In this document: piece after piece, positions 23,441 to 46,133 of the stretch
Position numbering within the stretch: position 1 is the stretch's first letter
Layout: each line of letters opens with the position of its first letter
From: Steroidobacteraceae bacterium
GTDB lineage: Bacteria; Pseudomonadota; Gammaproteobacteria; Steroidobacterales; Steroidobacteraceae
NCBI GenBank assembly: GCA_035765415.1
Contig: DASTXR010000159.1
Location: 48 to 64,047, forward strand
DNA length: 64,000 nt
Direction of reading: 5' to 3'
Made by a program: the position numbers and the translations under genes
Notes under the pieces: model-generated
The model's database searches: none
Told to the model about the DNA's origin: nothing
What the model saw: the letters and a program-made list of their open reading frames with translations, nothing else

Positions 23441-23476
23441 GGCGGGCCCTGGGAGCAGCCTGACTCTTGCGGGGGG

Positions 23477-23797: not shown

Positions 23798-23807
23798 GGC
23801 GGCGAGT

Positions 23808-26082: not shown

Positions 26083-26120
26083 GGCGGAAACGGCGGGCGT
26101 CCCTGCCCTGGCGCGTTCAT
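26083..26120 (-). pseudogene. Relic of DUF1348 gene 5' end (MNAPGQGRPPFPP...)
   Basis: ATG at 26120 overlaps the TBDR stop as ATGA. The first 13 codons match the intact DUF1348 gene, then similarity is lost at the paralog B stop. Confidence 0.7.
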
Positions 26121-26182
26121 CAGAACCGCTTGGAGAAAGTGAGCCCGAAAGTGCGCGGCAGTGTGGTCACCGTGTAGGGCTG
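26083..26182. repeat. 100-bp direct repeat, copy 2
   Basis: See copy 1. Spans the intact TBDR 3' end plus a relic of the DUF1348 start. Confidence 0.85.
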
Positions 26183-28576
26183 CAGTCCGCACAGCGGCAC
26201 TGCGTTCGGCGCCGGATCGTCGTCCGGGTCGTACGGCTTGAACTCCGCACACTCCGTGAACCGCGAAAGCACTGCGCGTTCGTCGAAGGCATTCTTCACG
26301 AACACTTCGAGGCCCCAACTCTCTTTCTCGACGCCAAAAGAAAAGTCGAAGATGTCGTACGAGGGCTGCTTGCCCAGCAGTTCGCGTTCATCGGTGCGCA
26401 GATCGGTCCACGCCGAGCCGGAATATACCCACGCACCCTGGAAGTGCGCGTCCATGCCGGCCATCGCAAACTCGTAGCGGCCCACGGCATTGGCCTTGAA
26501 CTCCGCCTGCACCGGCAGTTCCTGGCCGGCAGGCGCCTGGAGAAACGTGCCCACAGGGGCCAGCGGATCGTCGCAGTTGGTGACGATTTCACCTTCATTG
26601 GGACCCGTGTCATAGGTGGTGCCGCAGTAATCCTGCGTCGACTGCGCGTCGAGAACCGAGAAGGCACTCGAAAGCGTGAACGCGTCCGTGACGCTCCACA
26701 TGATGTCCGCCTCGATGCCCTTGATGCGGGCCTGACCGGCATTGCGGATTTCCGTGAGGCCGTTGGCGCCGAGGAACGAGTACTGGAAATCGTCCCAGTC
26801 CTGCTGGAACACGGCGCCGTTGATTCGAACGCGGTTGCCGGCCAGCTCAGTCTTGAAGCCCAACTCCACGTTGGTGAGGAAGTCCGCCTCGTACGGCGGC
26901 AGCGTGCCGCGGCGGTTGATGCCGCCCGGACGAAAACCTTCCGACCACGTGGCGTAGAGCATCACGTCGTCGTTGGCGTGCCACGTGAGGTTGAACCGCT
27001 TGGAATTGCCGTCTTCCTTCGTTGTCTTGTCGAGGTTCGTGCAGGGAGCGCGGCGGAACGGATCCGAGCCGGCAAAACAGGCCGCCTCGCCCGTGCCGGA
27101 CGAATAACCCGCTCCGTATCCGAAGAAGCCCTTGAGTGAATTCTCCGATTCGAAGAAGCGGATGCCGCCCGTGATGGCCAGTGTCTCGGTGATGTCGAAA
27201 GTGACTTCGCCGAACAGCGCGTCGTCAGCGTCCTCGCGCTCCTGGTCGGTGAGCCACAAGGTGTCGGGGTTGCCGGGCACTTCCAGGCCGTCGTTGAGAT
27301 TTTCGATGCGATACGACTGGTAGATGCTGTGGCTCTGGCGTTGCGTGAACGCACCGACCGTCAGGCGCCAGCGGTTCTCCGCGGACGACGACAAGCGCAA
27401 CTCGTGGCTGTTCTTCTTGTACTTGTCGCCGCCGACGATGAACTGCGTGGGGTCGATGAGAGCCCCGTCGTTGTCGCGGATGTAATCGCCGTACTGGCAG
27501 CAGGAGTCGTAGAAAAAGGAATAATCCGCGTAGTCCAGGCGCGTGGTGTCGTCACGATCGAGAAATGCGCCTGCGTACGTGAGATCCCAGCTGCCGATCT
27601 TTCCCTGCAGGGTGAGCGCGGCCTGCACGAACTTGTCTTCGGAAGACTCGTCCTTCGCGTGCGCGACCTTGAGGTCGCCCTCGAGCGGATCGAAGCCGAA
27701 CGTGCCGGTCGTCTTCGTATTCTGCGCCATCACGGTCGGAGTGATCGTCCAGGAATCGTTGAGGTCGATGCCGAGCGCGACGCGTGCGCCGTATTTCTGC
27801 CAGCCGTTGTAGTTGTCCTCGACCTTGTCGGTGTTGTCGACCGCGATGCCGGACACGGGGTACACGCGCGTCGAACGCACGTTGTCGATGTATCCGGGCT
27901 CGTCTTTCGACCAGCCGACGATGCGGATGGCCGCGTTGTCGCTCAGCGGGATGTTGACGAAACCTTCGCCGGTGTAGCCGAGATCGCCCTCGAGCGTGGC
28001 TCCCGTGAGATCGAAGCCCGCCGCGAACTGGGACGGATCGGGCTTGTTCGTGATGATGCGGATGGTGCCGGCCTGGGAGCTCGCGCCGTACAGCGTGCCC
28101 TGCGGGCCCGCGAGCACTTCGACGCGCGCGATGTCGTAGATCTGGACGTCGAGCGCGCCCTGGATCGTGGTGATCGGCTGCTCGTCGAGATACATGCCGA
28201 CCGAAGGTTGGGGACCCGAGTGGTTGGCATTTTCACCGCTGGCGACACCGCGCATGTACGGGCGCGCGAAGCCGGGACCGCCACTCTGAAAGGCCACATT
28301 CGGCAGGAATTTCACATAGTCGTCGAAGGTCTCGACCTTGAGGTTCGCGAGCTGCTCCTGGCCAATGGCCTGGATGGACATCGGCACATCCTGGAGGCTC
28401 TCATCCCGCTTGTTGGCGGAGACGACGACTTCGTCGAGCTTGGCGTCATCTGCCTGTTGTGCCTGTACGACGCCGGTGCCGGCGAGCAAGGCGCCGGCGA
28501 ATGGCAGCGCACGTCTAACAGCGGAAGCAAGGGAGCTTGAATCACGCGAAATAGTCCCGTTTCTGCTCACTGACAT
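26120..28576 (-). CDS. TonB-dependent receptor
   Basis: Signal peptide. Plug-domain motifs (DEVVVSANKRDESLQDVPMSIQAI, TLYGASSQAGTIRIITNKP). C-terminal aromatic residue (FSKRF). Confidence 0.9.
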   Translation of the reverse strand: MSVSRNGTISRDSSSLASAVRRALPFAGALLAGTGVVQAQQADDAKLDEVVVSANKRDESLQDVPMSIQAIGQEQLANLKVETFDDYVKFLPNVAFQSGGPGFARPYMRGVASGENANHSGPQPSVGMYLDEQPITTIQGALDVQIYDIARVEVLAGPQGTLYGASSQAGTIRIITNKPDPSQFAAGFDLTGATLEGDLGYTGEGFVNIPLSDNAAIRIVGWSKDEPGYIDNVRSTRVYPVSGIAVDNTDKVEDNYNGWQKYGARVALGIDLNDSWTITPTVMAQNTKTTGTFGFDPLEGDLKVAHAKDESSEDKFVQAALTLQGKIGSWDLTYAGAFLDRDDTTRLDYADYSFFYDSCCQYGDYIRDNDGALIDPTQFIVGGDKYKKNSHELRLSSSAENRWRLTVGAFTQRQSHSIYQSYRIENLNDGLEVPGNPDTLWLTDQEREDADDALFGEVTFDITETLAITGGIRFFESENSLKGFFGYGAGYSSGTGEAACFAGSDPFRRAPCTNLDKTTKEDGNSKRFNLTWHANDDVMLYATWSEGFRPGGINRRGTLPPYEADFLTNVELGFKTELAGNRVRINGAVFQQDWDDFQYSFLGANGLTEIRNAGQARIKGIEADIMWSVTDAFTLSSAFSVLDAQSTQDYCGTTYDTGPNEGEIVTNCDDPLAPVGTFLQAPAGQELPVQAEFKANAVGRYEFAMAGMDAHFQGAWVYSGSAWTDLRTDERELLGKQPSYDIFDFSFGVEKESWGLEVFVKNAFDERAVLSRFTECAEFKPYDPDDDPAPNAVPLCGLQPYTVTTLPRTFGLTFSKRF

Positions 28577-28666: not shown

Positions 28667-30586
28667 TCAAAACTGGGCTGAGACCGGATACTTTTCCAGC
28701 ACGGAACCGAGCGCCTGCTTCAACGGATCGAGCCACGGCTCGTAGTGCCGCCACTGGTCGACGCCCTCGCGAAATATCGGGCGACGCACCTGTTCGGAGC
28801 TGGCGGTGCGCACCGCTCGCTGGTTCTCGTGGAACCGGAGCACGCCGTCTTCGAACGGCAAGCCGCAGTATTCGAGCAGGCGGCGGATCTCGCCCTCGGT
28901 GTCCTCGACCATGTTTTCGTAGAACACGCGATGCACGCGTCCGGGTAACACGGCATCGAAATGGTCCATGAGCTCGACGTAGTTGCGGTAGTAGCGGCCG
29001 ATTTCCGCGAGGTCATATGTGAAACTCTGGCCGCGCGCAAAGTGCTGCTTGAAGCAGGAGAAGCAGCAGCCGAGCGGGTGCCTTCGGGCGTCGACGATCC
29101 TGGAATTCGGCAGCATCAGGTGAATGAGCCCGACGTGCGCGAAGTTATTAGGCATCTTGTCGATGAAGAATGGCCGGTCGGTCTTGCGCTGGATGCGTGT
29201 TTGCGCCAGGTATTGCTCGCCGAACGCCCGCAGCTCGTCCGCGGAATACCGCTCGAGCGCGCGCGGATACGCGGACCCTTCCGCGCGTGTGGTCCGCTTG
29301 CCGATGATGCGCGCGATCATCGTGACGTCCGGCAGCTCCTGCGTGCCCTCGACCTGCGAGTGTGTCGCGAGAATCTGTTCGATGAGCGTGGAACCGGACC
29401 GGGGCAGCCCGACCACGAAGATCGGGTCGGGCGCGGGGCAACCCATGCCACTGCGCGCGGCAAAAAACGCCGGCGTGAACAGCTTCTTCGAGCGCGCGAC
29501 ATGCGCTTCGTTGTCCTCGGCGTCGTAGCGGATCAGCTTGCGGCGCAACGCGTTGCCGCGCCGGTAGTGTTCGAACGATTCCGCGTACTCGCTCGTGTCC
29601 TCGAGCGCCTTGCCGAGCGCGAAATCGAAGTGAAACCGGTCTTCGTTCGTCAGGTCCGTACGCTCGAGCTGCGCGCGCATCGTCGCGATGTCATCGCTGC
29701 TGAAACGGTAGGTCTTGAGGTTGGCCAGGCTCCACCACACTTCCCCGAAGCGCGGCGTCAGTTCAATACAGCGACGATACGCGTCGATGCTCGCAGCGTT
29801 CTGGCCCGCCGTTTTCAATGCGTGACCCAGGCTCATCCATATGCGCGGCTGCCGCGGATAGTCCGCGAGCACGGCTTTGTATTGCTGGATCGACTTTTCG
29901 AACTCGCCGATGCGGCCGAGGATCGCCGCCTTGAGATTTCGAAGGCCGGGGTTCGTCGGATCCTCGGCGAGCAATGCCTGCACCTCTTGAAGCGCAGCCT
30001 CGGGCTTGTTTGCCCGGTGCAGCACCATTGCATAGTTCTGCCGCGCCACCTTGAAACCGGGTGCGAGTTCGAGGCAACGCGCGAGCAGGACCTCCGCGTC
30101 GGCGGTACGCCCGATGCGCGCCGCAACTTCGGCGAGCATCCGGATGGCGGCGACGTCGGTGGGATAGTGCCGCAGGTGTTCGCGCAGCGAAGCTTCCGCT
30201 TCCGGGATGCGGTTCTCGCTGAGCGCGAGCGCCGGCACCATGAGTTTCGGGTCGCTCGTCGAATACCGCAGATGCTGCGCGAAAGCTTCGTCCGCGGCTT
30301 CGCGCATCTCGAGCGCGCTGTAGTGATCCGCAAGCGCACGCCAGACGTCAGGCAGCGACGGCTTGAAGTGGACCGCGCGCCGCAGCGCCTCGATCGCATC
30401 GTCGCCCTTCCCGATGCGCCCCAACGCCAGACCCTTGAGCGCGAGCGCATCGGGCTGGTCAGGCAGCACCTTCAGTATTTCGTCGGCCTGCTCGATCGCC
30501 AACGGCGGGTCGCGGTCCAGCAGGCGCATCGCTTGCGCAAGCGCGAGCGCGAGCGTGCCAAGCGGATCTGCCGACGTACCGGTCAC
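28667..30586 (-). CDS. TPR-repeat sulfotransferase-family protein
   Basis: About 330 aa of TPR repeats, then a sulfotransferase 5'-PSB loop (VVGLPRSGSTLIEQIL). Start set at a GTG overlapping the upstream stop (GTGA); an ATG at 30529 is an alternative. Confidence 0.75.
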   Translation of the reverse strand: MTGTSADPLGTLALALAQAMRLLDRDPPLAIEQADEILKVLPDQPDALALKGLALGRIGKGDDAIEALRRAVHFKPSLPDVWRALADHYSALEMREAADEAFAQHLRYSTSDPKLMVPALALSENRIPEAEASLREHLRHYPTDVAAIRMLAEVAARIGRTADAEVLLARCLELAPGFKVARQNYAMVLHRANKPEAALQEVQALLAEDPTNPGLRNLKAAILGRIGEFEKSIQQYKAVLADYPRQPRIWMSLGHALKTAGQNAASIDAYRRCIELTPRFGEVWWSLANLKTYRFSSDDIATMRAQLERTDLTNEDRFHFDFALGKALEDTSEYAESFEHYRRGNALRRKLIRYDAEDNEAHVARSKKLFTPAFFAARSGMGCPAPDPIFVVGLPRSGSTLIEQILATHSQVEGTQELPDVTMIARIIGKRTTRAEGSAYPRALERYSADELRAFGEQYLAQTRIQRKTDRPFFIDKMPNNFAHVGLIHLMLPNSRIVDARRHPLGCCFSCFKQHFARGQSFTYDLAEIGRYYRNYVELMDHFDAVLPGRVHRVFYENMVEDTEGEIRRLLEYCGLPFEDGVLRFHENQRAVRTASSEQVRRPIFREGVDQWRHYEPWLDPLKQALGSVLEKYPVSAQF

Positions 30587-32019
30587 TTCCTGCCGGTCCC
30601 CGCGAGATCCTTCACGAGCAGGTACCACATCTCGAGCCCGTCATAGAACGACTTCACGGGGATGCGCTCGTTGAGGCCGTGCGCGAACGCGTCCTTGTCC
30701 TTGATGAACGTGGGATCCACGCCGTAGGTCGGAATGCCGACCGCGCGGAACACCAGGCCGTCGGTGGCGCCCGAAGCCTGCTGGGGCACGATGTTGGCGG
30801 CGGGATAGAACTTGTGCACGACGCGCGTGACGGCCGCGACGATGTCGTTGCGCAGCGGCGAGGCGTCGCTCGACATGGGCTCGCCATCCACCGTCACCTC
30901 GACGCCCTCGCCCACGACGCCCGCCAGCGCCAGGCGTACGTCGTCGACCTTCACGCCCGGGAAAATGCGGCAGTTGACGTTGGCGACGGCGCTCTGCGGA
31001 AGCGCGTTTTCGGCGTGCCCGCCTTCGAGCATGGTGGCCACGCAGGTGGTGCGCGTCTGTCCGACGTACGCCGGATTCGCCGCGAGCGCGGCGGCCGCGG
31101 CTTCGTCCTTGGGATTGGCGGCGAATTTCGACATCGCCGCGCCCAGTTCTCCCGGCGTGTTCTTCGCTGCCGACCGGAAACTCGCGACGGTGGTGTCGTT
31201 CCACATGACCGGGAAGCTGAACTGGCGCAGCTTCACGAGCGCCGTGGCGAGATCGTAGATCGCGTTGTCGGCGCGCGGCATCGAGCTGTGACCGCCCGGG
31301 TTGCGCGTGGTGAGTTTGAAGTCCGCGTAGGTTTTCTCGGCGGTCTGCAAGCCGTAGAACAACGGCTTGCCGGTGTCGTCGTCGAGCGTGCCGCCGCCGC
31401 CGTCGGAGTTCAGCGCGTATTCGGCGTCGATGAGATGCCGATGTTTGTTTGCGACCGCCACCGTGGTGGCCATCGAGGTTTCCTCGTCGCCGCTGAAATA
31501 GATGATGAGGTCGCGCTTCGGGACGAACTTTTCCGCCTTGAGGCGCAGGAAAAGCGTTGTCAGCCCGGCGACGCCGTGTTTCACGTCGTAGGTGCCGCGC
31601 CCGTAGAAGTAGCCGTTCTCTTCGATGAGCTTGTAAGGGTCGCGCACCCAGTCCGACGCCCTGGCCGTCACCACGTCCATGTGGGCGAGCAGCAGGATGG
31701 GTTTGCCGCCGCTGCCGTCGCCGCGGTAACGCACGACGAGCGCCGCGGTGCAGTCCGCCGGTAGTTTGAACGGCACGATGGTGACGTCTTCGGCCGGAAA
31801 ACCCGCGGCACGAAACTCGCCGGCGAGATATTCGGCCATCTCCGGAACCTTGCCGAGGCCCAGCGAGGTGGGGATGGAGATCACTTTCTCGAAGATTTCG
31901 CGCGCCTTGGCGTCGAACGGGCCGCGCGCGGGACGCAGGGCGGCGCTCGCGGAGGAGCCAGCGGTGAACGCCAGCAACACCCCGGCCGTTAACAATGTCA
32001 GCTTCTGTTTGGATTTCAT
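30583..32019 (-). CDS. M20-family metallopeptidase (secreted)
   Basis: Trimmed to MKSKQKLTLL... signal peptide. LLLAHMDVV, SGDEET and GGHAENALP motifs. Confidence 0.8.
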   Translation of the reverse strand: MKSKQKLTLLTAGVLLAFTAGSSASAALRPARGPFDAKAREIFEKVISIPTSLGLGKVPEMAEYLAGEFRAAGFPAEDVTIVPFKLPADCTAALVVRYRGDGSGGKPILLLAHMDVVTARASDWVRDPYKLIEENGYFYGRGTYDVKHGVAGLTTLFLRLKAEKFVPKRDLIIYFSGDEETSMATTVAVANKHRHLIDAEYALNSDGGGGTLDDDTGKPLFYGLQTAEKTYADFKLTTRNPGGHSSMPRADNAIYDLATALVKLRQFSFPVMWNDTTVASFRSAAKNTPGELGAAMSKFAANPKDEAAAAALAANPAYVGQTRTTCVATMLEGGHAENALPQSAVANVNCRIFPGVKVDDVRLALAGVVGEGVEVTVDGEPMSSDASPLRNDIVAAVTRVVHKFYPAANIVPQQASGATDGLVFRAVGIPTYGVDPTFIKDKDAFAHGLNERIPVKSFYDGLEMWYLLVKDLAGTGRK

Positions 32020-32139
32020 TGGCCTCGACCCCAAGTACGATGCCGGAATCTTACCTACACAACACTTGCATTGGGGGCGCGTGCCTTTATTCTTCGGGTT
32101 CGCGCGCTCGTTGCGCGCTCGTTCCCGCGGGAGGGTTCC

Positions 32140-32889
32140 ATGTTCAGCCGCATCGCCAACCTGTTCAAAGGTTTCCTGTCGTTGTTTGTCTCGGGCGTCG
32201 AGAGGCGCAATCCCGAAGCGCTGCTGGAACTCGAACAGGAAAACCTGCGCAAGCAGGTCGGCAACTTCAACCAGGGACTCGCCTCACACGCCGGCTTGTC
32301 CGAACGCCTCATGAGCCAGGTGCGCAAGCTCGAAGCCGAGCAGAAAGATCTGCGCGCCAAGACCACCGCGCACGTGCGCGCCGGCAACAACTCCGCCGCC
32401 GGCCAGTACGCGCTGCGCCTGCAGTCCGTGGAAGCCCAGCTCACCGAGAACCGCGCCCAGCTCGAGCAGGCCGAAACCACTTACAAGAACCTGGTGAAGG
32501 CCCGCGACGTCGCCGTGCAGACGGCGCGCGCCAAGATCGAAAGCCTGAAAGGCGCCATCAACGACATGCGCATGAAACAGGCCATGGCTGAAATCCACGA
32601 GATGTCGGCCGGCATGATCACCAACATCGGCGGCGCAGGCGACACGCTGAACCGCCTCGAAGGCATGGTCATGGAAGAGCGCGACAAGGCGGCCGGCCGT
32701 GCGCGCGTGGCCCGCGACGCCGTCGACATGTCGCAGGTCGAGGTCAAGGAAGCCGAGATGACCGCGCTCGCCGACCAGGCGCTGGCGGACTTCGCGGCGC
32801 GCGAGGGCATCTCGCTGAAGGGCACGGCCGCACCCGCACCGGCGGAGCGCTCCATGGGCACGGCTGAAAAGCCCCAGGGAAATGCATAA
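32140..32889 (+). CDS. PspA/IM30 (ESCRT-III superfamily) family protein
   Basis: Trimmed to MFSRIANLFKGFLSLFVSGVERRNPEALLELEQENL with GGGAGG Shine-Dalgarno. Long coiled-coil heptads typical of PspA/Vipp1. Confidence 0.8.
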   Translation: MFSRIANLFKGFLSLFVSGVERRNPEALLELEQENLRKQVGNFNQGLASHAGLSERLMSQVRKLEAEQKDLRAKTTAHVRAGNNSAAGQYALRLQSVEAQLTENRAQLEQAETTYKNLVKARDVAVQTARAKIESLKGAINDMRMKQAMAEIHEMSAGMITNIGGAGDTLNRLEGMVMEERDKAAGRARVARDAVDMSQVEVKEAEMTALADQALADFAAREGISLKGTAAPAPAERSMGTAEKPQGNA

Positions 32890-32929
32890 GGTCAATAGTT
32901 AGCTGAACGCCATACCACGAGAATCGGGC

Positions 32930-34579
32930 GTGCCCGCTCCGTCCGCAACACCCGCCTGGGCCGCCGAGCTCAGGCTCGCCTACGAAAGCGGCGCGTCCAG
33001 CCAGTTCATCCTGTTCGGCAACGTGCACGACCGGCTGGCCGTGGACCAACGCCTGGTCAGCCTCGCGGACTTCCTCGAGGACACGCTGCTCAAGAGCTTC
33101 GGCGTGGTGCTGTCTTACGACCTCGGCAGCGGCCTCAACATCGAGCGCGGCGGCGAAATCGTCGACAAGTGGCAGGGCGCGGAGCTCAAGCGCATGGCGC
33201 GCGAGCCGTTGGCGGCCGTCCAGTGGATCGACCGCTACCTGCGCTACCTCGGCAACCTGCGCGCGCTCGGCACCAGCGAGAAAACGCCGAACGTCGCAGT
33301 GATCCTGCGCAGCGTCGATCACATCGTGCCCGCGGACGGCGCCGGTTTCGAACACGGCAGCATCACCAGCATGCTGCGCGCGTGGTCCTGCGACTCGCCG
33401 TTCACCGACCTGCCGTTCACCAGCCTGTTGATCGCCGACAACCTCAACGACGTCGAACCGCTGCTCGCCAGCGCGGCTCACACCGTGCGCACGCGCGTGC
33501 CGCTGCCCGACGCGGCCGCGCTTGCGCAGGCGCTCGAAATCATGCGCAAGCAGAGCCCGCGGGCTTTCGCGCCAGAGGCCAACCTGCCGCAGATCGCCGG
33601 CATGCTCACGGGCGTCACCGTGTCGAGCCTCGGCAGCCTCACGAGTATTCGCCACTTCGAGTCGAAACCCCTCGCCGACGCCGACCTCGCAAGGCTCAAG
33701 AAAGAGCTGGTGGAACGCGATTCCTCGGGGCTGGTGGAATTCATCGAAGGCAAACGCACGCTCAACGACTACCACGGGCAGGAATCGCTGAAGACCTGGC
33801 TGCGCCAGGACATCGCCTTGTGGCGCGCCGGCGACCTGAAGGCGCTGCCCATGGGCTATCTACTGTGCGGCCCGGTGGGCACGGGCAAAACCTACCTCGT
33901 CGAGTGCCTCGCGGGTGAAGCCGGCGTGCCCGTGGTCAAGCTCAAGAACTTCCGCGACCGCTGGGTGGGTTCGTCCGAAGGCAACCTCGAGAAGATTTTC
34001 CGGCTCATTCGCGCGCTCGGCCGCTGCATGGTGTTCATCGACGAGGCCGACCAGACGCTCGGCAAACGCGACTCGGGCGCGAACGATTCGGGTCTTTCCG
34101 GCCGCATTTACTCGATGATCGCCCAGGAGATGTCGGACAGCGGCAATCGCGGGCGCGTGTTGTGGTTGTTAGCCTCGTCGCGGCCGGATCTCATCGAGGT
34201 CGACCTGAAGCGCCCGGGGCGCATCGACGTGAAGGTGCCGTTGCTGCCCACGAGCACACCCGCCGAGAGTGCGCAGCTCGTCGGCATGCTGGCGAAGCGC
34301 TACGGCCTCGAAATCGGCGCCGCGGATCTCGCGCGCCTCGAGCCGCGCATGCCCACGCTGCTGACGCCCGGCGCGGCCGAGGCGCTCGTGGTCAAGGCCT
34401 ATCGGCACGCCCGCACGCAGAACGTCCCCGGCGGCGCCGCGCTCGAAGCCAGCCTCGATGGCTACCAGAACCCCGTGCCCGCCGACGTCCTCGAATTCCA
34501 GATGCGCATCGCCATCCGCGAGGCGACGGACCTCGGCTTCGTGCCGCCGGCGTTTCGCGCGATGGCCAAAGCGGAATGA
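32930..34579 (+). CDS. Classical-clade AAA+ ATPase with ~280-aa N-terminal non-ATPase region
   Basis: Walker A GPVGTGKT, Walker B VFIDEAD, SRH-like KRPGRIDVKV. GTG start. Confidence 0.8.
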   Translation: MPAPSATPAWAAELRLAYESGASSQFILFGNVHDRLAVDQRLVSLADFLEDTLLKSFGVVLSYDLGSGLNIERGGEIVDKWQGAELKRMAREPLAAVQWIDRYLRYLGNLRALGTSEKTPNVAVILRSVDHIVPADGAGFEHGSITSMLRAWSCDSPFTDLPFTSLLIADNLNDVEPLLASAAHTVRTRVPLPDAAALAQALEIMRKQSPRAFAPEANLPQIAGMLTGVTVSSLGSLTSIRHFESKPLADADLARLKKELVERDSSGLVEFIEGKRTLNDYHGQESLKTWLRQDIALWRAGDLKALPMGYLLCGPVGTGKTYLVECLAGEAGVPVVKLKNFRDRWVGSSEGNLEKIFRLIRALGRCMVFIDEADQTLGKRDSGANDSGLSGRIYSMIAQEMSDSGNRGRVLWLLASSRPDLIEVDLKRPGRIDVKVPLLPTSTPAESAQLVGMLAKRYGLEIGAADLARLEPRMPTLLTPGAAEALVVKAYRHARTQNVPGGAALEASLDGYQNPVPADVLEFQMRIAIREATDLGFVPPAFRAMAKAE

Positions 34580-34589
34580 ATCGAGCGCA

Positions 34590-35441
34590 ATGAAGAAGAA
34601 GCCGTCCTACCTGCGAGCCGCGTTCAATGCGCGGCCGCTGGGCATGCCGATACCGCCCAACTGGTTCGGAGTGGCCGCGTTCGGATTGCTGGGCGCGTTG
34701 ATCAATCCCGGGCTGTGGCTCATCGGCGCCGGCCTCGAAGGGTTCTACCTGTGGTGGCTGTCGAAGAACGAGCGCTTCCGCGCCACGGTGGATGCCGAAC
34801 ATGGCTTCTCCGACAGCACGTCACGCTACGAGGAAATGCTCGCGAAACTCGACTCCGCCGCGCAGGGGCACCAGTACGAAATCGAGCAGGAAGCCGCCGA
34901 GATCGTCCAGCTCCTGCAACGCAGTGAGGCGCATGGTTCGCAGATCGGCGACGTGCGCCAGATGGCGTGGCTGCACCTGAAGCTGCTGGCGGCGCGCGAT
35001 TCGTTTGCCGAAGTCGTCGAAGCGGCCGATCGCGAGCGCAAGAAACTCGACGAGCAGGAACGCCGCTGCCGCGAGCGGCTCGCCGCCACGGGCACCGACG
35101 AAGAGCTGCGCCGCAGCCTCGAGCAACAGATCGAAGTCATCGGTTCGCGGCGCGCCGCGCATGCCGATGCCCAGCGCCGCATGGAACTGGTCGACGCGGA
35201 GCTCGGCCGCCTGCGCCAGCAGGTGTCGCTGGTGCGCGAGCAGGCGTTGCTGGTCACCGAGGAAGGCAACATCGGCCAGTCGCTCGACGCCCTGTCGGCG
35301 TCGCTCAATGAAGCGAATCGCTGGCTCAAGGATCAGCGCGAGTTGTTCGCGGGCCTCGAAAATTTCACCGACGAACCGCCACCGGCGGATCTGTTGGCGT
35401 CGAAGCGCGGAGTCAGACGTTCCGCGAAAGTTTCGGAGTAA
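34590..35441 (+). CDS. Membrane protein with two N-terminal TM helices and a long cytoplasmic coiled-coil, unknown function
   Basis: Track ORF trimmed to the ATG at 34590 (MKKKPSYLRAAF...). WFGVAAFGLLGALINPGLWLIGAGLEGFYLWWL, then Glu/Arg/Leu-rich heptads. Confidence 0.65.
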   Translation: MKKKPSYLRAAFNARPLGMPIPPNWFGVAAFGLLGALINPGLWLIGAGLEGFYLWWLSKNERFRATVDAEHGFSDSTSRYEEMLAKLDSAAQGHQYEIEQEAAEIVQLLQRSEAHGSQIGDVRQMAWLHLKLLAARDSFAEVVEAADRERKKLDEQERRCRERLAATGTDEELRRSLEQQIEVIGSRRAAHADAQRRMELVDAELGRLRQQVSLVREQALLVTEEGNIGQSLDALSASLNEANRWLKDQRELFAGLENFTDEPPPADLLASKRGVRRSAKVSE

Positions 35442-35454
35442 AGGAGAAGTGCAC

Positions 35455-37164
35455 ATGTCCTCGAGTCATCGTTATGCACGCGGTTCGGCCGCCGGCAACC
35501 TCATCACGTTGCTGCTGCTGGTCGGCGTGGTCGCCCTGGGCGCATGGCTGTGGCTGGGAAAGAAGGAAGAACCCAAGGCCGCGGGTGAATCGGCGAGGCC
35601 GAGTGCTTCGCAGCCGGCACGCGAAAAAGCCGTTGCCGCGCCGGAAGGTGATGCGCCCTCACCCATCGAACCGGTGATCGGCACGCCGACGCTCGAAGCG
35701 GCGAACACCTTCGTGCCGAAGGACAACATCCTGCGCATCGACATCAGCGAATACGCCGGCTACGGCGGCCTCATCGTCGCCAATGGCGGCCTCGAACCGA
35801 ACGCCGATTCGTTCTTCGCGAAGGAGTACGGCTTCAAGGTGGCGATCTCGATGAGCGAAAGCGAGACCTGGGGCCCGCTCAACAACGGCCGCCTCGCCGC
35901 CACGGCGACCACGGCCGACGCGCTGGCCGTGCTCGGACGGCAATTCGAAGCGGTGATCCCGGTACAGCTCGGATACTCGCGCGGCGCGGACATGGTGGTG
36001 GTGGATCGCGGCATCGCTTCGGTGAACGCGCTCGGCGGCAAGGTCCTGGCCGCTTCGCAATTCAACGAAAGCGAGTTCTTCATTCGCTATCTCGCGCAGG
36101 AAGCCGGCATCCCCGTGGTGGTGTTGCGCGACCTCGATGGAAAGCCCAAGGCCGGCTCGCTCGGCCTGGTGTTCTACGAAGATGCGTTTGCCGCCTGCGA
36201 CGCCTATCAACACGAGCTCGCCGGCGGCGGCGGCCGCCTGAACGGCTGCGTCGGCTGGACGCCGAAAACCGACGAAGTCATCGAAGCCAGCAAAGGCGCC
36301 GCCAAGGCGCTGGTATCCAACCGCAACCTGCTGGTCATTGCCGACGTGCTGGCGGTGAACAAGGGATTCGCGAAAGCCCACCCGGAAATGGTGAAAGGCC
36401 TCGTGCACGGCATTCTCGAAGGCAATCGCCGCCTGCGTGACAACCAGGCGGAGAACATCGCCGTGGTCGCCAAGGCGTTCAAGTGGACCGAGGAGGAAGC
36501 GCGCGACGAGCTCGCGCACGTGCATCTGTCGAACGCGCCGGAAAACCGCGCATTCTTCGCCGGCACCATCGATTCCGCCGGTTCGTTCGGCGGCATCTTC
36601 CAGTCTTCGGTGCTGGCCTACGGCAGCCTGCTGCGCAATCCCGCCGATCCTTCGCGGTTCGCGGACTCGAGCTTTCTCGACGCGATCGTCAAGCGTGCGC
36701 CGTTCTCCGAGCAGAAAATTGCCATCGCGCCGATCCGCACGTCGACACAGGCCGCGCTCGAAGGCGACCCGCTGCTCAGCAAGGACATCCGGTTCTTCTT
36801 CGAACCCAACTCCTCGAACCTCGACCGCTCCGCGGCCCAGAACCAGGAGTACCTGCAGACCATCAAGCGGTTCCTGCAGGTGAGCCCCGGCTCCACCGTG
36901 CTTCTGCGCGGCCACGTGGACAACGCGCGCGTCGATGAATTCCGCAAGTCGGGCGGCGAGCAGCTCGTGCAGAGCATGGCGCTGAAGGCCATGGAGCTGT
37001 CACGTCAACGCGCGATGGCGGTGAGCACAGCCCTGCTCGAAAAATTCCCGGAGATCGACAAGACAAGAGTGGAGTCGGTGGGCCGTGGCTGGGAAGAGCC
37101 CACGGGCGCCACCGACAACGCTCAGAACCGCCGCGTAGAGGTGCAGTGGTTCACCGTCGAGTAG
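35455..37164 (+). CDS. Membrane-anchored periplasmic-binding-protein-like (NMT1/ABC SBP type) domain fused to a C-terminal OmpA-like peptidoglycan-binding domain
   Basis: AAGGAGAAG Shine-Dalgarno. N-terminal TM helix. C-terminus GHVDNAR...LSRQRAMAV...NRRVEVQWF is OmpA_C-like. Confidence 0.7.
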   Translation: MSSSHRYARGSAAGNLITLLLLVGVVALGAWLWLGKKEEPKAAGESARPSASQPAREKAVAAPEGDAPSPIEPVIGTPTLEAANTFVPKDNILRIDISEYAGYGGLIVANGGLEPNADSFFAKEYGFKVAISMSESETWGPLNNGRLAATATTADALAVLGRQFEAVIPVQLGYSRGADMVVVDRGIASVNALGGKVLAASQFNESEFFIRYLAQEAGIPVVVLRDLDGKPKAGSLGLVFYEDAFAACDAYQHELAGGGGRLNGCVGWTPKTDEVIEASKGAAKALVSNRNLLVIADVLAVNKGFAKAHPEMVKGLVHGILEGNRRLRDNQAENIAVVAKAFKWTEEEARDELAHVHLSNAPENRAFFAGTIDSAGSFGGIFQSSVLAYGSLLRNPADPSRFADSSFLDAIVKRAPFSEQKIAIAPIRTSTQAALEGDPLLSKDIRFFFEPNSSNLDRSAAQNQEYLQTIKRFLQVSPGSTVLLRGHVDNARVDEFRKSGGEQLVQSMALKAMELSRQRAMAVSTALLEKFPEIDKTRVESVGRGWEEPTGATDNAQNRRVEVQWFTVE

Positions 37165-39902: not shown

Positions 39903-42269
39903 GTGTTGCAGCAGTGGGGATCGTTCCGCACGGTTCGCGGACGGTTGCTGTTCTGGACGCTGGCCGTCACCGTGCCCATCTACGCCGGTGCGCTGTACAT
40001 GTCGTACCAGGAGTCGGCGCGAGGCCTCGAGGCCGGCGCGGAGCGCGATGTGGACGAACTCGCGGCGCGGCTGGCCGCCGGCCTCGATGCCGTCATTCGC
40101 CCCATCGAAGGCGGCGTTCGCACGGTGGCCGGACAACTCGAGGAAATCGATCCGCCGCGCGAGCAATACGAAGCCCGCATTCGGGGCATCCTGGCGTCGT
40201 GGCCGGAAGTGTACGGCTCCACCATCGCCACCGAGGTCGACGAAGCAAACAAGGCGAGGCCGTTCGCCCCCTATCTGTTCTGGCGCGACGGCGTCATCGC
40301 GCGGTCCGACCTGGCAACGGACGACTACGGCTACCGCAAACTACCCTGGTACCGGCGCGCCGCCGACGGCCGGCAGCCGGTGTGGTCGCTGCCCTATTTC
40401 GATACCGGCGGCGGCGAAGCGTGGATGGTCACCTACTCCGTGCCCTTCTTCCGGAAACTCGGTGAACGCCGCGTGTTAGGCGGAGTCGTCACCGCCGATC
40501 TCGACCTCAACTGGATGACGGGTGTCGCGGCAAAGGTCTCGCCCGGACCCATCGGCATGGGCTGGCTGGTCTCTCCGGCGGGCACGCACGCTTTCGTCAG
40601 CGCGATCGGCCCCACGCAGAGCCGGCTGCGCGAATTCGATGCATCGCTTCAACCGGATCGCCTGCGCGGCATCGCCGAAGACATGCTCGCCACTCACAAG
40701 ACGTTCATGCGCCTGCCGGAGGGAACGACGGCTCACGCCGCCTATCTCGCCGTACGAAACCTGGACACATTGAATTGGCGATTGATGCTCGTGATCCCGC
40801 GCGCTCAATTGCTTGCCGAAGCGCGCAACCTGCTGAACCGGCAACTTCTGCTGGGCATTGCCGGGCTCGTGCTGCTCATCGTGGCAATTTCCGTGGTCGC
40901 CGCGGGCATCTCGCGTCCGCTGCACGCACTTGCCGAGGCCGTCGGGAAATCCTCCGAAGAGGATCCGGATTTCCAGCTGCACGAAGTTCCGCGACGCGAC
41001 GAGATCGGCGTGCTCGCGCAGGCACTGCGGCGCATGCGCGACTCGCTTCGCAAACACATCGAACTACGTGTTCAGACCATGGCGGACCAGGCACGCGCCG
41101 AACACGAGCTGCAGATCGCCGCGAGCATTCAGCAGTCGATGCTGCCGCGAACCGACTCGCGCGTGCTGGCCGCCACCGTTGCCGCTGCGCTGGTGCCTGC
41201 AAGGCAGGTGGGAGGCGATCTCTATGATTACTACAACGCTCCCGATGGCAACCTGCTGTTCGCCATCGGCGATGTCTCCGACAAGGGCGTCCCCGCGGCA
41301 TTACTCATGGCCAGGTTGTCGACGCTGCTGCGTACGCTCGGCGCGTCCGGCGATGCTCCCGATCGCCTGCTCTTCGGCATCAACGCTCGCCTGGCCGAAG
41401 GCAACGAGGCGTGCATGTTCGTGACACTGGGCTGCGGACAGCTCAATGCGCGAACCGGACAGGTCCGTTACGCAAGCGCGGGGCACGAGCCGCCGCTGCT
41501 GCGGCAACACGACGGAACAGTTAGAGTGCTGGCGACCGAGAACGGACCGGCCCTGGGCATCGACACGGGCGTGGACTACCGGCTGACCGAGGGATTCATG
41601 GCACCCGGCGATACCCTGGTTCTGTACACCGATGGCGTCACCGAAGCGGCCGCAGCCGACGGCTCGCTGTTCGGCATCGATCGCCTGACCGCGCTCCTCG
41701 GTGCAAGCGCGAGTGGCGAACCCGCGTCGCTCGTCCAGCAAATCCTGGACACCGTCAACGCCAGCGGAAGCAGCTTTCACACGGCGGACGACCTGACCGT
41801 TCTGGCGATCAGCCTGAATCCGCCCGACGTGACCGTTCATCGCGAATCCGAGGCCACGAGATGGCGCATCGTGCCGGAGCGCTCGTTCGCCGGCGTACGC
41901 CAGGTTCAGCAGTGGCTGCGCGCCATCCTCGCGTCCCGCGAATTCGCGGCCGATGTCATTGGCGATGTCGAGCTGATCGCCGAAGAACTGTTGACCAACA
42001 TCCTGCGAGCCAACGAAGGCCGGGAAGTGAAAGTGGCTGTCGACTGCGGAATCGTTCGCGGGAACATCCTGTTGACCGCCATCGATGATGGCCTGCCCTT
42101 CAATCCGCTTGCGCGCGAATCACCGCGGCTCGACGCCGATATCGCGGACCGCGAGACCGGCGGACTGGGCATCGAGATCGTTCGCCAGCTCGCCGACCGT
42201 TGCCACTACGCGCACATCGATGGCCGCAACCACCTGGACGTCTTCTTTCAGCGAAGCTCCCCGCAATAA
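39903..42269 (+). CDS. Sensor PP2C (SpoIIE-type) phosphatase: TM/Cache-like sensor - HAMP - PP2C - C-terminal RsbW-like HATPase domain
   Basis: GTG start. PP2C motifs (GGDLYDY, FAIGDVSDKGVPAALLMA, LVLYTDGVTEA). C-terminal ELIAEELLTNILRAN ... ETGGLGIEIV kinase-like fold. Confidence 0.8.
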   Translation: MLQQWGSFRTVRGRLLFWTLAVTVPIYAGALYMSYQESARGLEAGAERDVDELAARLAAGLDAVIRPIEGGVRTVAGQLEEIDPPREQYEARIRGILASWPEVYGSTIATEVDEANKARPFAPYLFWRDGVIARSDLATDDYGYRKLPWYRRAADGRQPVWSLPYFDTGGGEAWMVTYSVPFFRKLGERRVLGGVVTADLDLNWMTGVAAKVSPGPIGMGWLVSPAGTHAFVSAIGPTQSRLREFDASLQPDRLRGIAEDMLATHKTFMRLPEGTTAHAAYLAVRNLDTLNWRLMLVIPRAQLLAEARNLLNRQLLLGIAGLVLLIVAISVVAAGISRPLHALAEAVGKSSEEDPDFQLHEVPRRDEIGVLAQALRRMRDSLRKHIELRVQTMADQARAEHELQIAASIQQSMLPRTDSRVLAATVAAALVPARQVGGDLYDYYNAPDGNLLFAIGDVSDKGVPAALLMARLSTLLRTLGASGDAPDRLLFGINARLAEGNEACMFVTLGCGQLNARTGQVRYASAGHEPPLLRQHDGTVRVLATENGPALGIDTGVDYRLTEGFMAPGDTLVLYTDGVTEAAAADGSLFGIDRLTALLGASASGEPASLVQQILDTVNASGSSFHTADDLTVLAISLNPPDVTVHRESEATRWRIVPERSFAGVRQVQQWLRAILASREFAADVIGDVELIAEELLTNILRANEGREVKVAVDCGIVRGNILLTAIDDGLPFNPLARESPRLDADIADRETGGLGIEIVRQLADRCHYAHIDGRNHLDVFFQRSSPQ

Positions 42270-42281
42270 CGAGGTGCCGAT

Positions 42282-42650
42282 ATGTCTCTCAAGATCGAGT
42301 CCGACGCATCGAACACGCCGACCATCAAACTCGGCGGACGCCTCGACAGCGAAACCGCTCCCAGCCTCGATCGCGCGCTCGATCCGCTGCTCGCGAATAC
42401 GTCGCTGCAGCGCATGGTCTTCGATCTCGGTGACCTCGAGTACCTGAGCAGCGCCGGCATCCGGTGCTTCATCCGCGCACGCAAGGCCATCGAACCTCGT
42501 GGCGGCAAGGTGGCCGTCATCAACCCGCAACCCGCGGTGCGCAAGGTGCTGGAGATCGTGAAAGCGATTCCTGGCGGCGTCTTCCGGAATGTCACGGAGC
42601 TCGACGCGTATCTCGACGAAATGCAGCGGAAGGTGCGGGAGCAGGAATAA
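42282..42650 (+). CDS. STAS-domain anti-sigma-factor antagonist
   Basis: 122 aa. DLGDLEYLSSAGIRCF carries the phosphorylatable Ser context. Confidence 0.8.
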   Translation: MSLKIESDASNTPTIKLGGRLDSETAPSLDRALDPLLANTSLQRMVFDLGDLEYLSSAGIRCFIRARKAIEPRGGKVAVINPQPAVRKVLEIVKAIPGGVFRNVTELDAYLDEMQRKVREQE

Positions 42651-42656
42651 GCCGCG

Positions 42657-45600
42657 CTAAGACGCGGCGCGCAGGCGACTCTGTTCTGCTTCGCTGCGCC
42701 AGCGAAGCGCGTCGTCGACGAGATTCACGATCTCGGGCCGCGCCGCCAGAGTTGCGCCTTGACCATAGATGAGTTGCAACAAACGTTCCCCGGCGCGCAC
42801 CGCCATCGATGCCTCACCGAGCACATGGTAAGCACAGCCGATGGTATGAACGATGTTGTCGTCGCGAACCTTGTTGATGCCTTCCGGGTGCAGGCACTGC
42901 GTCAGGAAAATCAGGTCGTGACTTCGAAAGGACTCGTGCAACTGGGTGTAGTCGTTTCGAACTTCCAGGAAAAGCGTGGCCGCGTAGACGACGTTGTTGA
43001 TGCGCCGCTCCGCCTCCAGCTTCAGGAAAACTTCCGATTCCGGATCAGTCGGAGGCAGGCTCCTGCCAAAAGGAAGGTTGTCGTACACGATGCGAAACGC
43101 CTGGCGCACGACATCCAGGTATTCAAGCACTTTCGCGTCGCTGGGCGCCGCAGTGCCAAATTCTTTCCTGAGTTTCCTGGCCTTGTCGAACAAGGGCGAT
43201 GCGCGCCGACGACACATCGTGCTTCGCACCCAATGGCCCGGAAGGTCATTCAACATTCCGTCCGAATCGAGGAGATCGGTTGCGGCCTGAAGCTCACTTT
43301 GTGCAAGTTCACCGGCGAGCTGATCGCCCCTTTCCGCCAGCTCTGAATAGACGACGTGTAATCTGAAATGCGTGGTCGCGGCTTTCGGATAGTCCCTGGT
43401 CAGCGATTCATATTGAGTGACGAGAGAACGCAACCGTTGCTCCGTATCTCTTGGATCCGCCGCGACCAATGCCTCCAGCAGGCGTGCGTAGCAACCCTCC
43501 ATGCGCAGCATGAAATCGGCAGGCGACGGCACCTCATGTTGGCCCTGGCGCAGCTTGTCCAGGGCCCGGTCGAAAAACCTGGCTGCGCGCCGAAATGCGC
43601 GCCGATGCGCGGGATCGACGCCCAACTGCGTAGGCCCTGCCACGGAAGACAGGATGTCGAGACCGCTCACTGCATCCGCGAGCGCGTGCGGGATCTTCAG
43701 TTCTTTCGCAATGATTTCCTTGCTTCGAATGCTGGGCCAGATCGGCGCGTATACGACTTCCCAATGCAGATAAAGATTTTGCTGGCCAACGAGTTTTTCG
43801 AGCTCACCGGCGATGAGGCGGCCGATCTGATCGTGGGAACCCTTCAATTGCAGGTGCAACTCCCGCGCAAAATGGCGCGCCGGTTCCGGAACCATGTCGG
43901 TGATGACGCGACGCGCCTCCAGGCTGAACGCACCCGAAGTCGGGTGCGCGTATGCGTCGCCGGCGTCCGATTCGTGTTCGAGAATGTAGCCGATGATTTC
44001 CATCGACATGACGCGCCGGGGGATTTCGTCCGGCCCCATCTTCTCGCGAAGGCGCACCAGCACCTCGCACAGACTCTTGTGCCAGCCGCGAATCAGCGTC
44101 GGCAGTTCCGGGGTCCGCCAGCCCAATCGACATCGCACTGCGGCGAGCCCGTACGCCAGCATCTGCGAAAGAGAACGTGCCGCGTTGAAGGTATCGCCTT
44201 TGTCGATACAGATCTTGTTGGCTGACTTCAGCAGATCGATTCCCTGATCGAGAAGGGCGTCATGACCCATCTCTTCCGGCGCGACATTCAGGATGAACTC
44301 GAGAATCTGCGCAGCCTTCTCCATGGGCACGCGCGGGTCGGCGGTGTCACTTCGCACGACCAGGTGCGAGTTCACCGACGTGAACCGCGTCCGCGCAGCG
44401 CGCACCTTGTCGGATTCGCCGTCGATACCGCCCAGCCGCCTCACCTGCGCGAGAAGCAGGTTCGCTTCCTGTATCGTCGAAGCGTCGTCCCTGGATGAAG
44501 CGAGCAAGGCCACATCCGCCGCACTGCGTGCGTAGATCCGCGCGAGATCCCACCGGGTCCGGCACGCATGCAACAGCGCCCAGGCCAGATAGCGTTCGGC
44601 GGTTTTGCCCTTGAGATTCCCGAGCAGTTCTTCCAGGTTGTCGCAGGTGCCGACTGATTCGCGGACTTTCGTGGAGGCGAAATTGACCGGACCTGGCGCT
44701 CCGGCGATCAGGGGACGGACGGTGGCCATCGGCAGCGTTGGGTGCCGTTCGATGAGTGCGTCAATATGCGCATCGAACTGCTCGCGTCCGTGCGCCTGGC
44801 CAAGCGAATAGGTCTTGTATCCAAACGTCTGCACGCACCCAGCGACCTCATCACGAATGACTTTCTCGAACGCTTCGTCATTCGCAAACCATTGCAGGAG
44901 CTGTTCGACGTCAACGCTCTGCGTTGCCTCGAGGTCCCGTGGCATCGTCCCGGCCTCTGCGCGCAGGTCGAGCGCAAAACTCGCTCGCTCGAAATCGTGC
45001 AGGGCGTTGACGAAGATTTTCCGGGCCTCTTCGACTTCGGCGCCGCGATCGTCGGTCTCCCGAGGTCCGGCGCGCAGTTGCCGGTCGAACGTGTCGAGCG
45101 CAACCGCAAGCGTCGCCATGATCTCTTCTGACACGCGTGGTACGGAGGCGGGAAGCAACAACATCCGCGGATGTCTCAGAAAATCCACGTCGTCGAGGCC
45201 TTTTGCCTTGAGCGCATCGGAGTTGCGGGTGGTTCGGATGAGCGACATCACGCGGGTCACGAGCACGACGCGCACGTGATCTTTCTTCAGGCGCCGCAGC
45301 CCCTTCGAGAGGACATCCATGCAGGCCATTGCCTCGGCATCGATGCGATTCGAATTCGTCGAACGATCTCTGCGCTCGTCGCTGGCCTCTATGAAGTCGT
45401 ACCACCGGCCGATGTGCTCTTCCGTGGGACGCAACGCGCGCAGGGTCTGCGCCTCTTCGCGGGTAAACGAGAGTTTTTCCCACGCGTACTCGCTCAACCC
45501 GGAAAGATCGCTGCGCTCCAGCAGATCCTTGATCCTGGATCGGGGCGTCGATGGCGCCTTGCGCAGCATGACGATGAGCGCCGGCGCATAACCTTCGAGT

Positions 45601-46106: not shown

Positions 46107-46133
46107 GGGAACCTGGTGATTGTTATGAGTGCT

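Follow-up and report, generated by a model that had tools for sequence, protein, structure and literature searches.

A stretch of 64,000 nucleotides from a metagenome-assembled genome (MAG) of a Steroidobacteraceae bacterium (Gammaproteobacteria; GenBank assembly GCA_035765415.1, contig DASTXR010000159.1, positions 48 to 64,047 of the forward strand; about 65% GC), referred to below as the window, was found to carry a four-gene operon at positions 32140-37164. Its first two genes encode a PspA/IM30-family protein and a classical-clade AAA+ ATPase. Within the PspA subfamily to which the first product belongs, the pairing with this ATPase is essentially obligate and is spread over many phyla. 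The operon is read here as belonging to a conserved cross-phylum envelope system built around an obligate pair of PspA and a dedicated tandem AAA ATPase, in which the ATPase would disassemble the PspA polymer; from the sequence comparisons and structure models given below, the chances for and against this reading are judged to be about even. The architecture itself is not new: the window holds the short form, without ATP-binding cassette (ABC) genes, of a system that has been described computationally (Ravi, Anantharaman et al., mSystems 2024, preprint 2020; PMC11237479).

Operon layout

Four open reading frames (ORFs), all on the plus strand and separated by intergenic gaps of 40, 10 and 13 nt, make up the operon. 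They are numbered g1 to g4 in the order of transcription:

32140-32889, plus strand: g1, PspA/IM30-family protein (ESCRT-III superfamily), 249 aa; NCBI HEU5138082.1; PF04012
32930-34579, plus strand: g2, predicted tandem (type II) classical AAA ATPase, GTG start, 549 aa
34590-35441, plus strand: g3, predicted inner-membrane hairpin protein with a cytoplasmic helical domain, 283 aa; without a Pfam model
35455-37164, plus strand: g4, predicted inner-membrane-anchored fusion of a binding-protein domain and an OmpA-like domain, 569 aa; NCBI HEU5138085.1

The ORFs confirm the coordinates and gaps given in a preliminary description of this DNA, in which the four products had been named as PspA, AAA+ ATPase, transmembrane coiled-coil protein and solute-binding protein (SBP)-OmpA fusion; all four names proved correct. 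The g2 product is 100% identical to an NCBI protein entry from an 82-kb contig. The GC content at third codon positions is 0.83-0.89 in g1-g4, and the GC pattern by codon position is typical of real genes in this DNA. Shine-Dalgarno-like motifs precede g1 (GGGAGG) and g4 (AAGGAG).

The cluster is flanked by opposite-strand genes on both sides, an M20 peptidase gene (minus strand) upstream and a convergent gene for an fn3-containing protein downstream. Because these genes bound the cluster and the flanking ORFs scanned carry no related partners, g1-g4 form a discrete four-gene operon. In the seven flanking ORFs scanned, no PspB, PspC, ABC ATPase or ABC permease domain and no ESCRT-II-like winged-helix protein was matched; Pfam matches to PspB or PspC were likewise absent from g3, g4 and the neighbouring ORFs. 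The sigma-54 activator motifs GAFTGA and ESELFGH did not occur in any frame of the whole 64 kb window. The earlier statement that PspF, PspB and PspC are missing thus holds, for PspB and PspC in the operon and the flanking ORFs scanned, and for PspF, by the GAFTGA search, in the 64 kb.

Linkage of the PspA and ATPase genes

A HMMER search with g2 against 1.84 billion representatives returned 742 proteins at E < 1e-30, many of which span both halves of g2. For the genomic survey one genome was kept per species, which gave 80 ATPase loci. Among their sources are Steroidobacteraceae, Lysobacterales (Arenimonas, Pseudoxanthomonas), Pseudomonas and Atopomonas, as well as Dongiaceae, Anaeromyxobacter, Acidobacteriota, Planctomycetota, Verrucomicrobiota, Abditibacteriota and Desulfuromonadales. 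Among the 69 loci with at least 1.5 kb of upstream sequence, 58 carry a same-strand PspA gene within about 1.2 kb upstream of the ATPase gene. These 58 loci represent at least six phyla and span Gammaproteobacteria, Alphaproteobacteria, Myxococcota, Acidobacteriota, Planctomycetota, Verrucomicrobiota, Abditibacteriota and Desulfuromonadales. The reciprocal search was made in metagenomes, starting from the PspA subfamily: the ATPase gene lies downstream in all of the loci with enough downstream sequence (41/41), a sample that is biased to close relatives (69-95% identity). The synteny survey that the preliminary description had called for therefore shows a linkage that is real and conserved. 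Recurrence across phyla places the arrangement far beyond chance, and chance adjacency of the two genes was discarded as an explanation.

The further partners vary. The window's own order, PspA-AAA-g3-g4, was found in 19 loci, mostly from Proteobacteria; the order PspA-g3-AAA in 15, including Acidobacteriota, Planctomycetota and Desulfuromonadales; and the PspA-AAA pair without further partners in 21. In Verrucomicrobiota the order is g4, ABC permease, ABC ATPase, g3, PspA, AAA, which was verified with Pfam in a Luteolibacter locus (L023); two more loci of this phylum have spacing like it. A gene of the g4 type is present in 23/80 genomic loci, and g3 accompanies the PspA-AAA pair in 42/80. 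The survey counts for g3 were made with envelope-trimmed profile matches and a coverage filter.

Several loci of the survey deserve separate mention. Three Steroidobacteraceae/Povalibacter MAGs, from assemblies other than that of the window, carry an ATPase about 59% identical to g2 with no adjacent PspA gene (L005; L006, 8001-9662; L007), possibly a second paralogue. The gene in L006 is preceded by a BlaR1-like M56 peptidase, an ABC ATPase and two MacB/FtsX-type permeases; the context in L007 differs. Akkermansia and some other Verrucomicrobiota (L057, L053, L073) have an ATPase homologue of about 51% identity with no PspA gene nearby; in Akkermansia muciniphila (L057, 4280-5956) it lies between genes for a large dienelactone-hydrolase-family protein and a YkuD L,D-transpeptidase. 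In a relative that is 91% identical (L016) the ORF scan finds g4 alone intact, and tblastn matches the ATPase over its full length; assembly frameshift errors are the likely explanation for the broken ORFs.

The tandem ATPase

The conserved AAA module of g2 was recognised by PF00004 (aa 310-436, E=5e-24), and the assignment to the classical AAA clade made in the preliminary description from GPVGTGKT, VFIDEAD and RPGRID is borne out. Two domains were delimited:

32987-33715, plus strand: D1, degenerate AAA domain, aa ~20-262, by alignment of the N-terminal half with the C-terminal half by using hhalign
33716-34576, plus strand: D2, catalytically complete AAA domain, aa ~263-549, by PF00004 and invariant residues

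D2 carries Walker A GPVGTGKT (aa 314-321, positions 33869-33892), Walker B VFIDEAD and the arginines of the second region of homology in RPGRID. Across 41 homologues that share 28-55% identity, G317 and K320 of Walker A, D371 and E372 of Walker B, the arginines R428 and R431 and the glycine G430 do not vary, and the aromatic segment of the pore loop (R-W-V-G in the window) is conserved among the same 41. D1 was recognised by comparing the profile of the N-terminal half with that of the C-terminal half (probability 87%, E=4e-6, motifs in register). At the P-loop position of D1 the family has a degenerate F-x-L-H-G-N-V-x-D and at the Walker B strand A-V-I-I-D-Y-A-E; the corresponding segments in the window are FILFGNVHDR and AVILRSVD. 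The column counts of the 41 diverse homologues show no GK[ST] in D1. The preliminary description had noted an extra N-terminal region of about 280 aa; the region is present, and by this comparison it is a degenerate AAA copy and not an additional type of domain.

The AlphaFold2 (AF2) model of g2, made from the diverse alignment, has a mean predicted local distance difference test (pLDDT) score of 92.2 and a predicted template modelling (pTM) score of 0.88. Foldseek aligned it with the D1-D2 tandems of Afg2/Drg1 (7z11), Rix7 (7swl), Cdc48 (6omb) and p97, over about 580-600 columns of these type II proteins (E~1e-21, TM-score ~0.6). By sequence, the nearest solved relatives are Afg2, NVL, p97, Cdc48 and VAT. 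Among family models, the active domain gave its highest scores with CDC48 (TIGR01243; 68.7 bits, cut-off 802) and FtsH (61.9), followed by PAN (49); the CdvC model (NF041006) gave 32.6 bits against a cut-off of 650. D1 starts about 20 residues from the N-terminus, so that the protein has no separate N-terminal substrate or adaptor (double-psi-barrel) domain. No MIT domain was detected in g2, whose N-terminal region has no Pfam match, and neither Pfam nor hydropathy analysis revealed a membrane anchor or protease domain.

Taken together, motifs and modelled fold identify g2 as a type II, Cdc48/Afg2/Rix7-like ATPase, in which D1 has lost its nucleotide-binding motifs and D2 is intact. The comparison with Vps4/CdvC drawn in the preliminary description does not extend to the family of the enzyme: there is no MIT domain, the fold is a D1-D2 tandem, and the CDC48 and FtsH models outscore CdvC. 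The label 'SpoVK/Ycf46/Vps4 family', which the Joint Genome Institute (JGI) attaches to some homologues, is a generic COG name. Because g2 lacks a MIT domain, has a degenerate AAA copy as its N-terminal region and adopts a Cdc48-type tandem fold in the model, the parallel with Vps4 would be functional and not familial; any function that such a Cdc48-like enzyme has in common with Vps4 would therefore be convergent. Of the ESCRT-III/Vps4-like pairing put forward in the preliminary description, the logic can be kept; the family of the ATPase has to be changed to Cdc48-like, and the claim of novelty is wrong, since the module is already in Ravi et al. 2024 (PMC11237479). A role of the operon in anti-phage defence was also considered and rejected, as the only PADLOC signals were an unspecific AAA resemblance to IetA and coiled-coil noise under the threshold.

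PspA subfamily and C-terminal tail

The g1 product matches PF04012 (PspA_IM30) with E=6e-12; its score of 46.1 bits exceeds the cut-off of 33.9, and the match covers positions 3-217 of the 220 in the profile. A match to PF04012 was also obtained for 28/28 g1 orthologues sampled across phyla. The subfamily, which reaches from Proteobacteria to Acidobacteriota and Verrucomicrobiota, is conserved to an unusual degree, with a mean column identity of 67%. Searches of PDB chain sequences with g1 or its family profile did not match the solved PspA/Vipp1 structures. By these profile comparisons g1 is assigned to a divergent PspA subfamily, for which the Pfam membership stands. Two segments stand out at its ends:

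32143-32202, plus strand: predicted N-terminal amphipathic helix, aa 2-21 (FSRIANLFKGFLSLFVSGVE), by hydrophobic moment
32746-32862, plus strand: C-terminal tail of conserved helix, variable linker and [KR]-x-M-G, by conservation in the subfamily

A membrane-binding N-terminal helix, alpha0, is known from published work on PspA and Vipp1. The helical hydrophobic moment of aa 2-21 in g1 is 0.52, the top value in the protein, and this segment is likely to be the corresponding membrane-binding helix.

The tail begins with a strongly conserved helix, KEAE-x-ALADQALADFAA-x-EGI (aa ~203-226). It is followed by a variable, Pro/Ala-rich linker of 15-29 residues and by the short motif, which in the window reads RSMG (aa 237-240) and precedes a few variable residues. 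Of the genomic orthologues 53/62, and of the metagenomic ones 62/80, carry the motif in the form [KR]xM[GAST]; among the exceptions shown, the majority have a close variant such as RSLG. The conservation pattern makes this helix-linker-[KR]xMG tail a candidate for the recruitment or engagement of the ATPase.

Hairpin protein

No Pfam or NCBIfam model matched the g3 family. One membrane element was delimited from hydropathy, conservation and flank charges:

34659-34760, plus strand: hydrophobic hairpin, aa 24-57

The 34-residue hydrophobic stretch consists of two segments of about 15 aa, split by a conserved N-P-G, and carries a conserved glutamate (E50). The flanks have charges of +5 and +2; since both are net positive, the positive-inside rule places both ends of the protein probably in the cytoplasm. 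The remainder is all-helical. In the AF2 model (pLDDT 70.8) the helices comprise aa 116-165, 171-223 and 228-252, of which the first two form a long hairpin followed by the third.

Ravi et al. include a membrane-anchored divergent Snf7 protein among the partners of PspA. This Snf7 label for the protein in the position of g3 could not be reproduced here. No Snf7/PspA signal was obtained with Pfam in 34 diverse members, in sequence-profile searches of the PDB with shallow and diverse alignments, or with hhalign against the cognate PspA family and human CHMP4B. Foldseek of the AF2 model returned BAR and SMC coiled coils (best E 0.33) and no Snf7/PspA structure. The negatives for g3 and Snf7 carry little weight, as the positive control, the PspA family against CHMP4B, gave no signal either.

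Binding-protein-OmpA fusion

Three parts were recognised in g4:

35497-35553, plus strand: transmembrane anchor, ~aa 15-33, within a hydrophobicity peak at aa 8-37
35638-36774, plus strand: binding-protein domain, aa 62-440, TauA/SsuA/NMT1-like by profile searches
36796-37131, plus strand: OmpA domain, aa 448-559 (PF00691, E=1.4e-9)

The N-terminal anchor has no lipobox and is followed by a low-complexity linker. For the binding domain, the family profile matched the taurine-binding protein TauA (6ssy) with E=1.7e-5 and SsuA weakly; g4 itself matched TIGR01728 (SsuA_fam) with E=3.5e-6, and a significant NMT1 match was obtained for the Luteolibacter orthologue. The name given by NCBI is 'phosphate ABC transporter substrate-binding/OmpA family protein', whereas the profiles point to the TauA/SsuA/NMT1 type; no NCBIfam model corresponding to the phosphate-binding name matched at E<0.01. 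The OmpA domain shows the signature residues GH-x-D and LS-x-x-RA-x-x-V.

Proposed mechanism and alternative explanations

The disassembly of ESCRT-III is the job of Vps4. A comparable cycle is proposed for the operon because of the obligate gene pairing, the intact translocation motifs of the ATPase, the cytoplasmic placement of three of the partners and the conserved tail motif. With its N-terminal amphipathic helix, PspA would attach to the inner membrane from the cytoplasmic side and polymerise there; g3, held in the membrane by its hairpin, would offer a helical platform in the cytoplasm on which PspA is positioned or nucleated. The ATPase would form a double-ring hexamer with the inert D1 ring as a scaffold, engage the exposed PspA tail (conserved helix, linker and [KR]xMG) and thread PspA subunits through the D2 pore, so that the polymer is disassembled and recycled. 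In this way the role that Vps4 plays for ESCRT-III would be filled for PspA by a different branch of the classical AAA proteins. The g4 product would staple the site to the peptidoglycan and may sense, deliver or couple to a periplasmic solute. The more specific claim, that the tandem AAA protein recognises the helix-linker-[KR]xMG tail, disassembles the polymer and is a convergent, non-orthologous counterpart of Vps4 in many bacteria, is put at slightly under an even chance.

Several points weigh against the proposed disassembly cycle. Polymer formation by g1 is assumed from its Pfam membership alone, and the role given to g3 is a guess for a protein without detectable similarity to PspA or Snf7. 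The cycle does not account for the g4 binding domain or for the missing ABC transporter. In 11/69 loci the ATPase gene has no PspA gene nearby, so this ATPase family can work, or be encoded, apart from PspA; the neighbours at these loci vary (MacB/FtsX permeases, a YkuD transpeptidase, a radical SAM enzyme, esterases), and no second conserved context emerged among them. Finally, the preliminary description was right in its caveat that PspA-ATPase linkages had been recorded by computation at most: the study of Ravi et al. 2024 is computational, and no experimental study of a PspA-ATPase module was found in the literature searched.

The occurrence of some ATPase homologues without PspA would suit an enzyme that extracts or unfolds membrane proteins for quality control in the manner of Cdc48, Msp1 or FtsH, with inner-membrane proteins (possibly g3, g4 or damaged proteins) as substrates and PspA co-encoded only to seal the bilayer while extraction proceeds or afterwards. 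The fold and best scores of g2, which are those of Cdc48/Afg2/FtsH-type unfoldases and not of Vps4, agree with such a function, as does the presence of two membrane proteins among the four operon products. We nevertheless regard it as unlikely, at roughly one chance in five: the linkage is strictly reciprocal within the PspA subfamily (41/41), a linear motif conserved at the C-terminus of PspA is most simply explained by a direct partner, and the ATPase has neither a membrane anchor nor a protease domain. The Luteolibacter locus L023, in which SBP-OmpA, a BPD_transp_1 permease and an ABC_tran ATPase precede g3, PspA and AAA, together with the two other Verrucomicrobiota loci of equal spacing, would fit a system that is primarily a NitT/TauT-type module for binding-protein-dependent transport or sensing. 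PspA, the ATPase and g3 would then be accessories that assemble, gate or protect it, and the permease and ABC ATPase would be encoded elsewhere in the genome of the window; Ravi et al. report the long form and suggest a link to solute transport (PMC11237479). The counts speak against this, with SBP-OmpA in 23/80 loci and the ABC pair verified by Pfam in one (L023), as against 58 loci with the PspA-AAA pair. Because the SBP-OmpA and ABC genes are rarer than the pair, the transporter is better seen as an optional part, and a diffusible transport receptor is not usually fused to a peptidoglycan anchor; a transport module is accordingly held to be rather improbable, at about one chance in seven.

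PspA may also be a recruited scaffold and not a substrate, with the ATPase as a chaperone for the assembly of a sub- or trans-membrane complex. This is the reading given in PMC11237479, and type II AAA proteins such as Rix7 and Afg2, which are here structural neighbours only, act in the maturation of complexes. It is given a poor chance, near one in ten, since the operon encodes no candidate client complex besides its four proteins; moreover, the known assembly factors of the type II AAA class extract or unfold a component, which reduces the proposal to PspA disassembly or to membrane-protein extraction. The last alternative, a true bacterial orthologue of Vps4/CdvC in an ESCRT system acquired from archaea, has in its favour that a gene of the ESCRT-III superfamily adjoins a classical AAA gene. 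It is contradicted by the domain architecture and was rejected as scarcely credible: g2 has no MIT domain and is a tandem instead of a single AAA protein, its CdvC score of 32.6 bits (cut-off 650) lies below those of the CDC48 and FtsH models, and its partner belongs to the PspA and not to the Snf7 family.

Upstream region and neighbouring genes

Two elements were noted upstream of g1:

32066-32093, plus strand: promoter-like element, TTGCAT (32066-32071), 16 nt spacer, TATTCT (32088-32093), from the upstream alignment of close relatives
32102-32118, plus strand: GC palindrome GCGCGC-tcgtt-GCGCGC, between the promoter-like element and the ribosome-binding site

The promoter-like TTGCAT-N16-TATTCT is kept in close relatives and scores under the threshold of the consensus scan; it may serve as a promoter. 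The relatives alter the sequence of the palindrome and yet stay palindromic, for example CGCGCAcgTGCGCG in the upstream alignment, and the element could be an operator or a hairpin in the 5' untranslated leader. In the cross-phylum alignment of the region upstream of pspA the ribosome-binding site alone aligns. A consensus scan of the operon for promoters and terminators gave nothing exceeding the expectation from shuffled sequence.

Elsewhere in the window, the segments 20001-26000 and 42001-50000 fall to a GC content of about 0.60-0.62, compared with about 0.65 in the remainder, and could have been acquired. A 788-aa sensor protein is encoded about 2.7 kb downstream of the operon (39903-42269, plus strand). 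It combines a dCache-like periplasmic domain, HAMP, a SpoIIE/PP2C phosphatase and HATPase_c_2 (anti-sigma-kinase-like), and looks like a partner-switching module in a single protein. On the minus strand a TPR-repeat/sulfotransferase fusion (28667-30628) adjoins a TonB-dependent receptor (26120-28576).

Significance

How the bacterial ESCRT-III relatives PspA and Vipp1 are disassembled and recycled is an open question, for which this type of operon is the best genomic candidate. If the proposed reading is true, it would contradict the view of a review that bacteria have no Vps4-like regulator (PMC7619361), and an ATP-driven remodeller of the ESCRT-III superfamily would exist in at least six phyla, including the cultivable Pseudomonas, Pseudoxanthomonas, Arenimonas and Verrucomicrobium. 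As culturable strains such as Pseudoxanthomonas mexicana, Arenimonas composti DSM 18010 and Pseudomonas tumuqii carry the pair, the hypothesis is directly testable with two purified proteins, and the conserved C-terminal motif of PspA offers a concrete handle for mutagenesis.

Because the architecture was already in the literature, the value of the present analysis lies in refinement and testability and not in discovery. New are the two-way synteny with its counts, the structural placing of the ATPase with the Cdc48/Afg2/Rix7 type and the recognition of a TauA/SsuA-like binding domain; the conserved C-terminal motif of PspA is also new, as is the finding that the Snf7 assignment of g3 is not confirmed.

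Comparison with known systems

Ravi et al. (PMC11237479) described the association of PspA with an inactive-AAA/AAA protein, which sometimes includes the membrane-anchored divergent Snf7 mentioned above and in longer operons an ABC ATPase, a permease and a PBPB+OmpA protein. Their examples are Candidatus Handelsmanbacteria OGG56892.1 and Clostridium AEY64321.1, and ATP-dependent membrane remodelling akin to Snf7/Vps4 was proposed alongside the solute transport link. Common to that system and the window are PspA, a two-AAA ATPase with an inactive N-terminal copy, a transmembrane helical protein and a solute-binding+OmpA fusion. The window differs in its order (PspA, AAA, transmembrane protein, SBP-OmpA) and in having no ABC permease or ATPase in the operon or the flanking ORFs scanned; its binding domain is TauA/SsuA/NMT1-like, compared with the PBPB label of Ravi et al. 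The full long form of their system is present in the Luteolibacter relative.

The canonical PspF-PspABC system of Enterobacteria likewise contains a PF04012 PspA with an N-terminal amphipathic helix. In contrast to it, the operon has no PspF, PspB or PspC, and its AAA+ protein is of the classical-clade unfoldase type and not a sigma-54 activator. With OmpA-like anchors of the MotB, TssL and Pal/YiaD type, g4 has in common a C-terminal PF00691 domain with the signature residues; unlike these, it adds a binding-protein domain and sits in a PspA operon. The ATPases Cdc48/p97/VAT, Afg2/Drg1 and Rix7/NVL are the best sequence neighbours of g2 and have the same D1-D2 tandem fold. The g2 protein differs from these Cdc48-type enzymes in lacking an N-terminal adaptor domain and, in D1, a Walker A motif, and in scoring far under the family cut-off; moreover, it is bacterial and linked to PspA.

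According to Makarova et al. (mBio 2024; PMC10936438), ESCRT systems consisting of Vps4 and ESCRT-III occur in archaea and eukaryotes only, and in the words of a 2025 review a Vps4-like ATPase "appears absent in bacteria" (PMC7619361). In the archaeal Halo_adaptin loci of PMC10936438 the gene for a Vps4-like ATPase without a MIT domain follows a PspA-like gene, and the Meth_adaptin ESCRT locus encodes a ProX substrate-binding protein. Compared by description only, these loci resemble the window in combining a PspA-like protein with a MIT-less ATPase and in the presence of a substrate-binding protein. They differ from it in being archaeal, in their ATPases, which are Vps4 relatives with a single AAA domain (and, in Halo_adaptin, a VAT-like N domain), and in their winged-helix and adaptin-like proteins. 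Set against ESCRT-III/Vps4 (CdvB/CdvC) itself, g2 is a D1-D2 tandem without MIT and with a poor CdvC score, and its partner is of the PspA and not of the Snf7 type. Both systems nevertheless place a gene of the ESCRT-III superfamily next to a classical-clade AAA gene whose product has an aromatic pore loop, and the short C-terminal motif of g1, set behind a flexible linker, is reminiscent of the MIT-interacting motifs (MIMs) of ESCRT-III.

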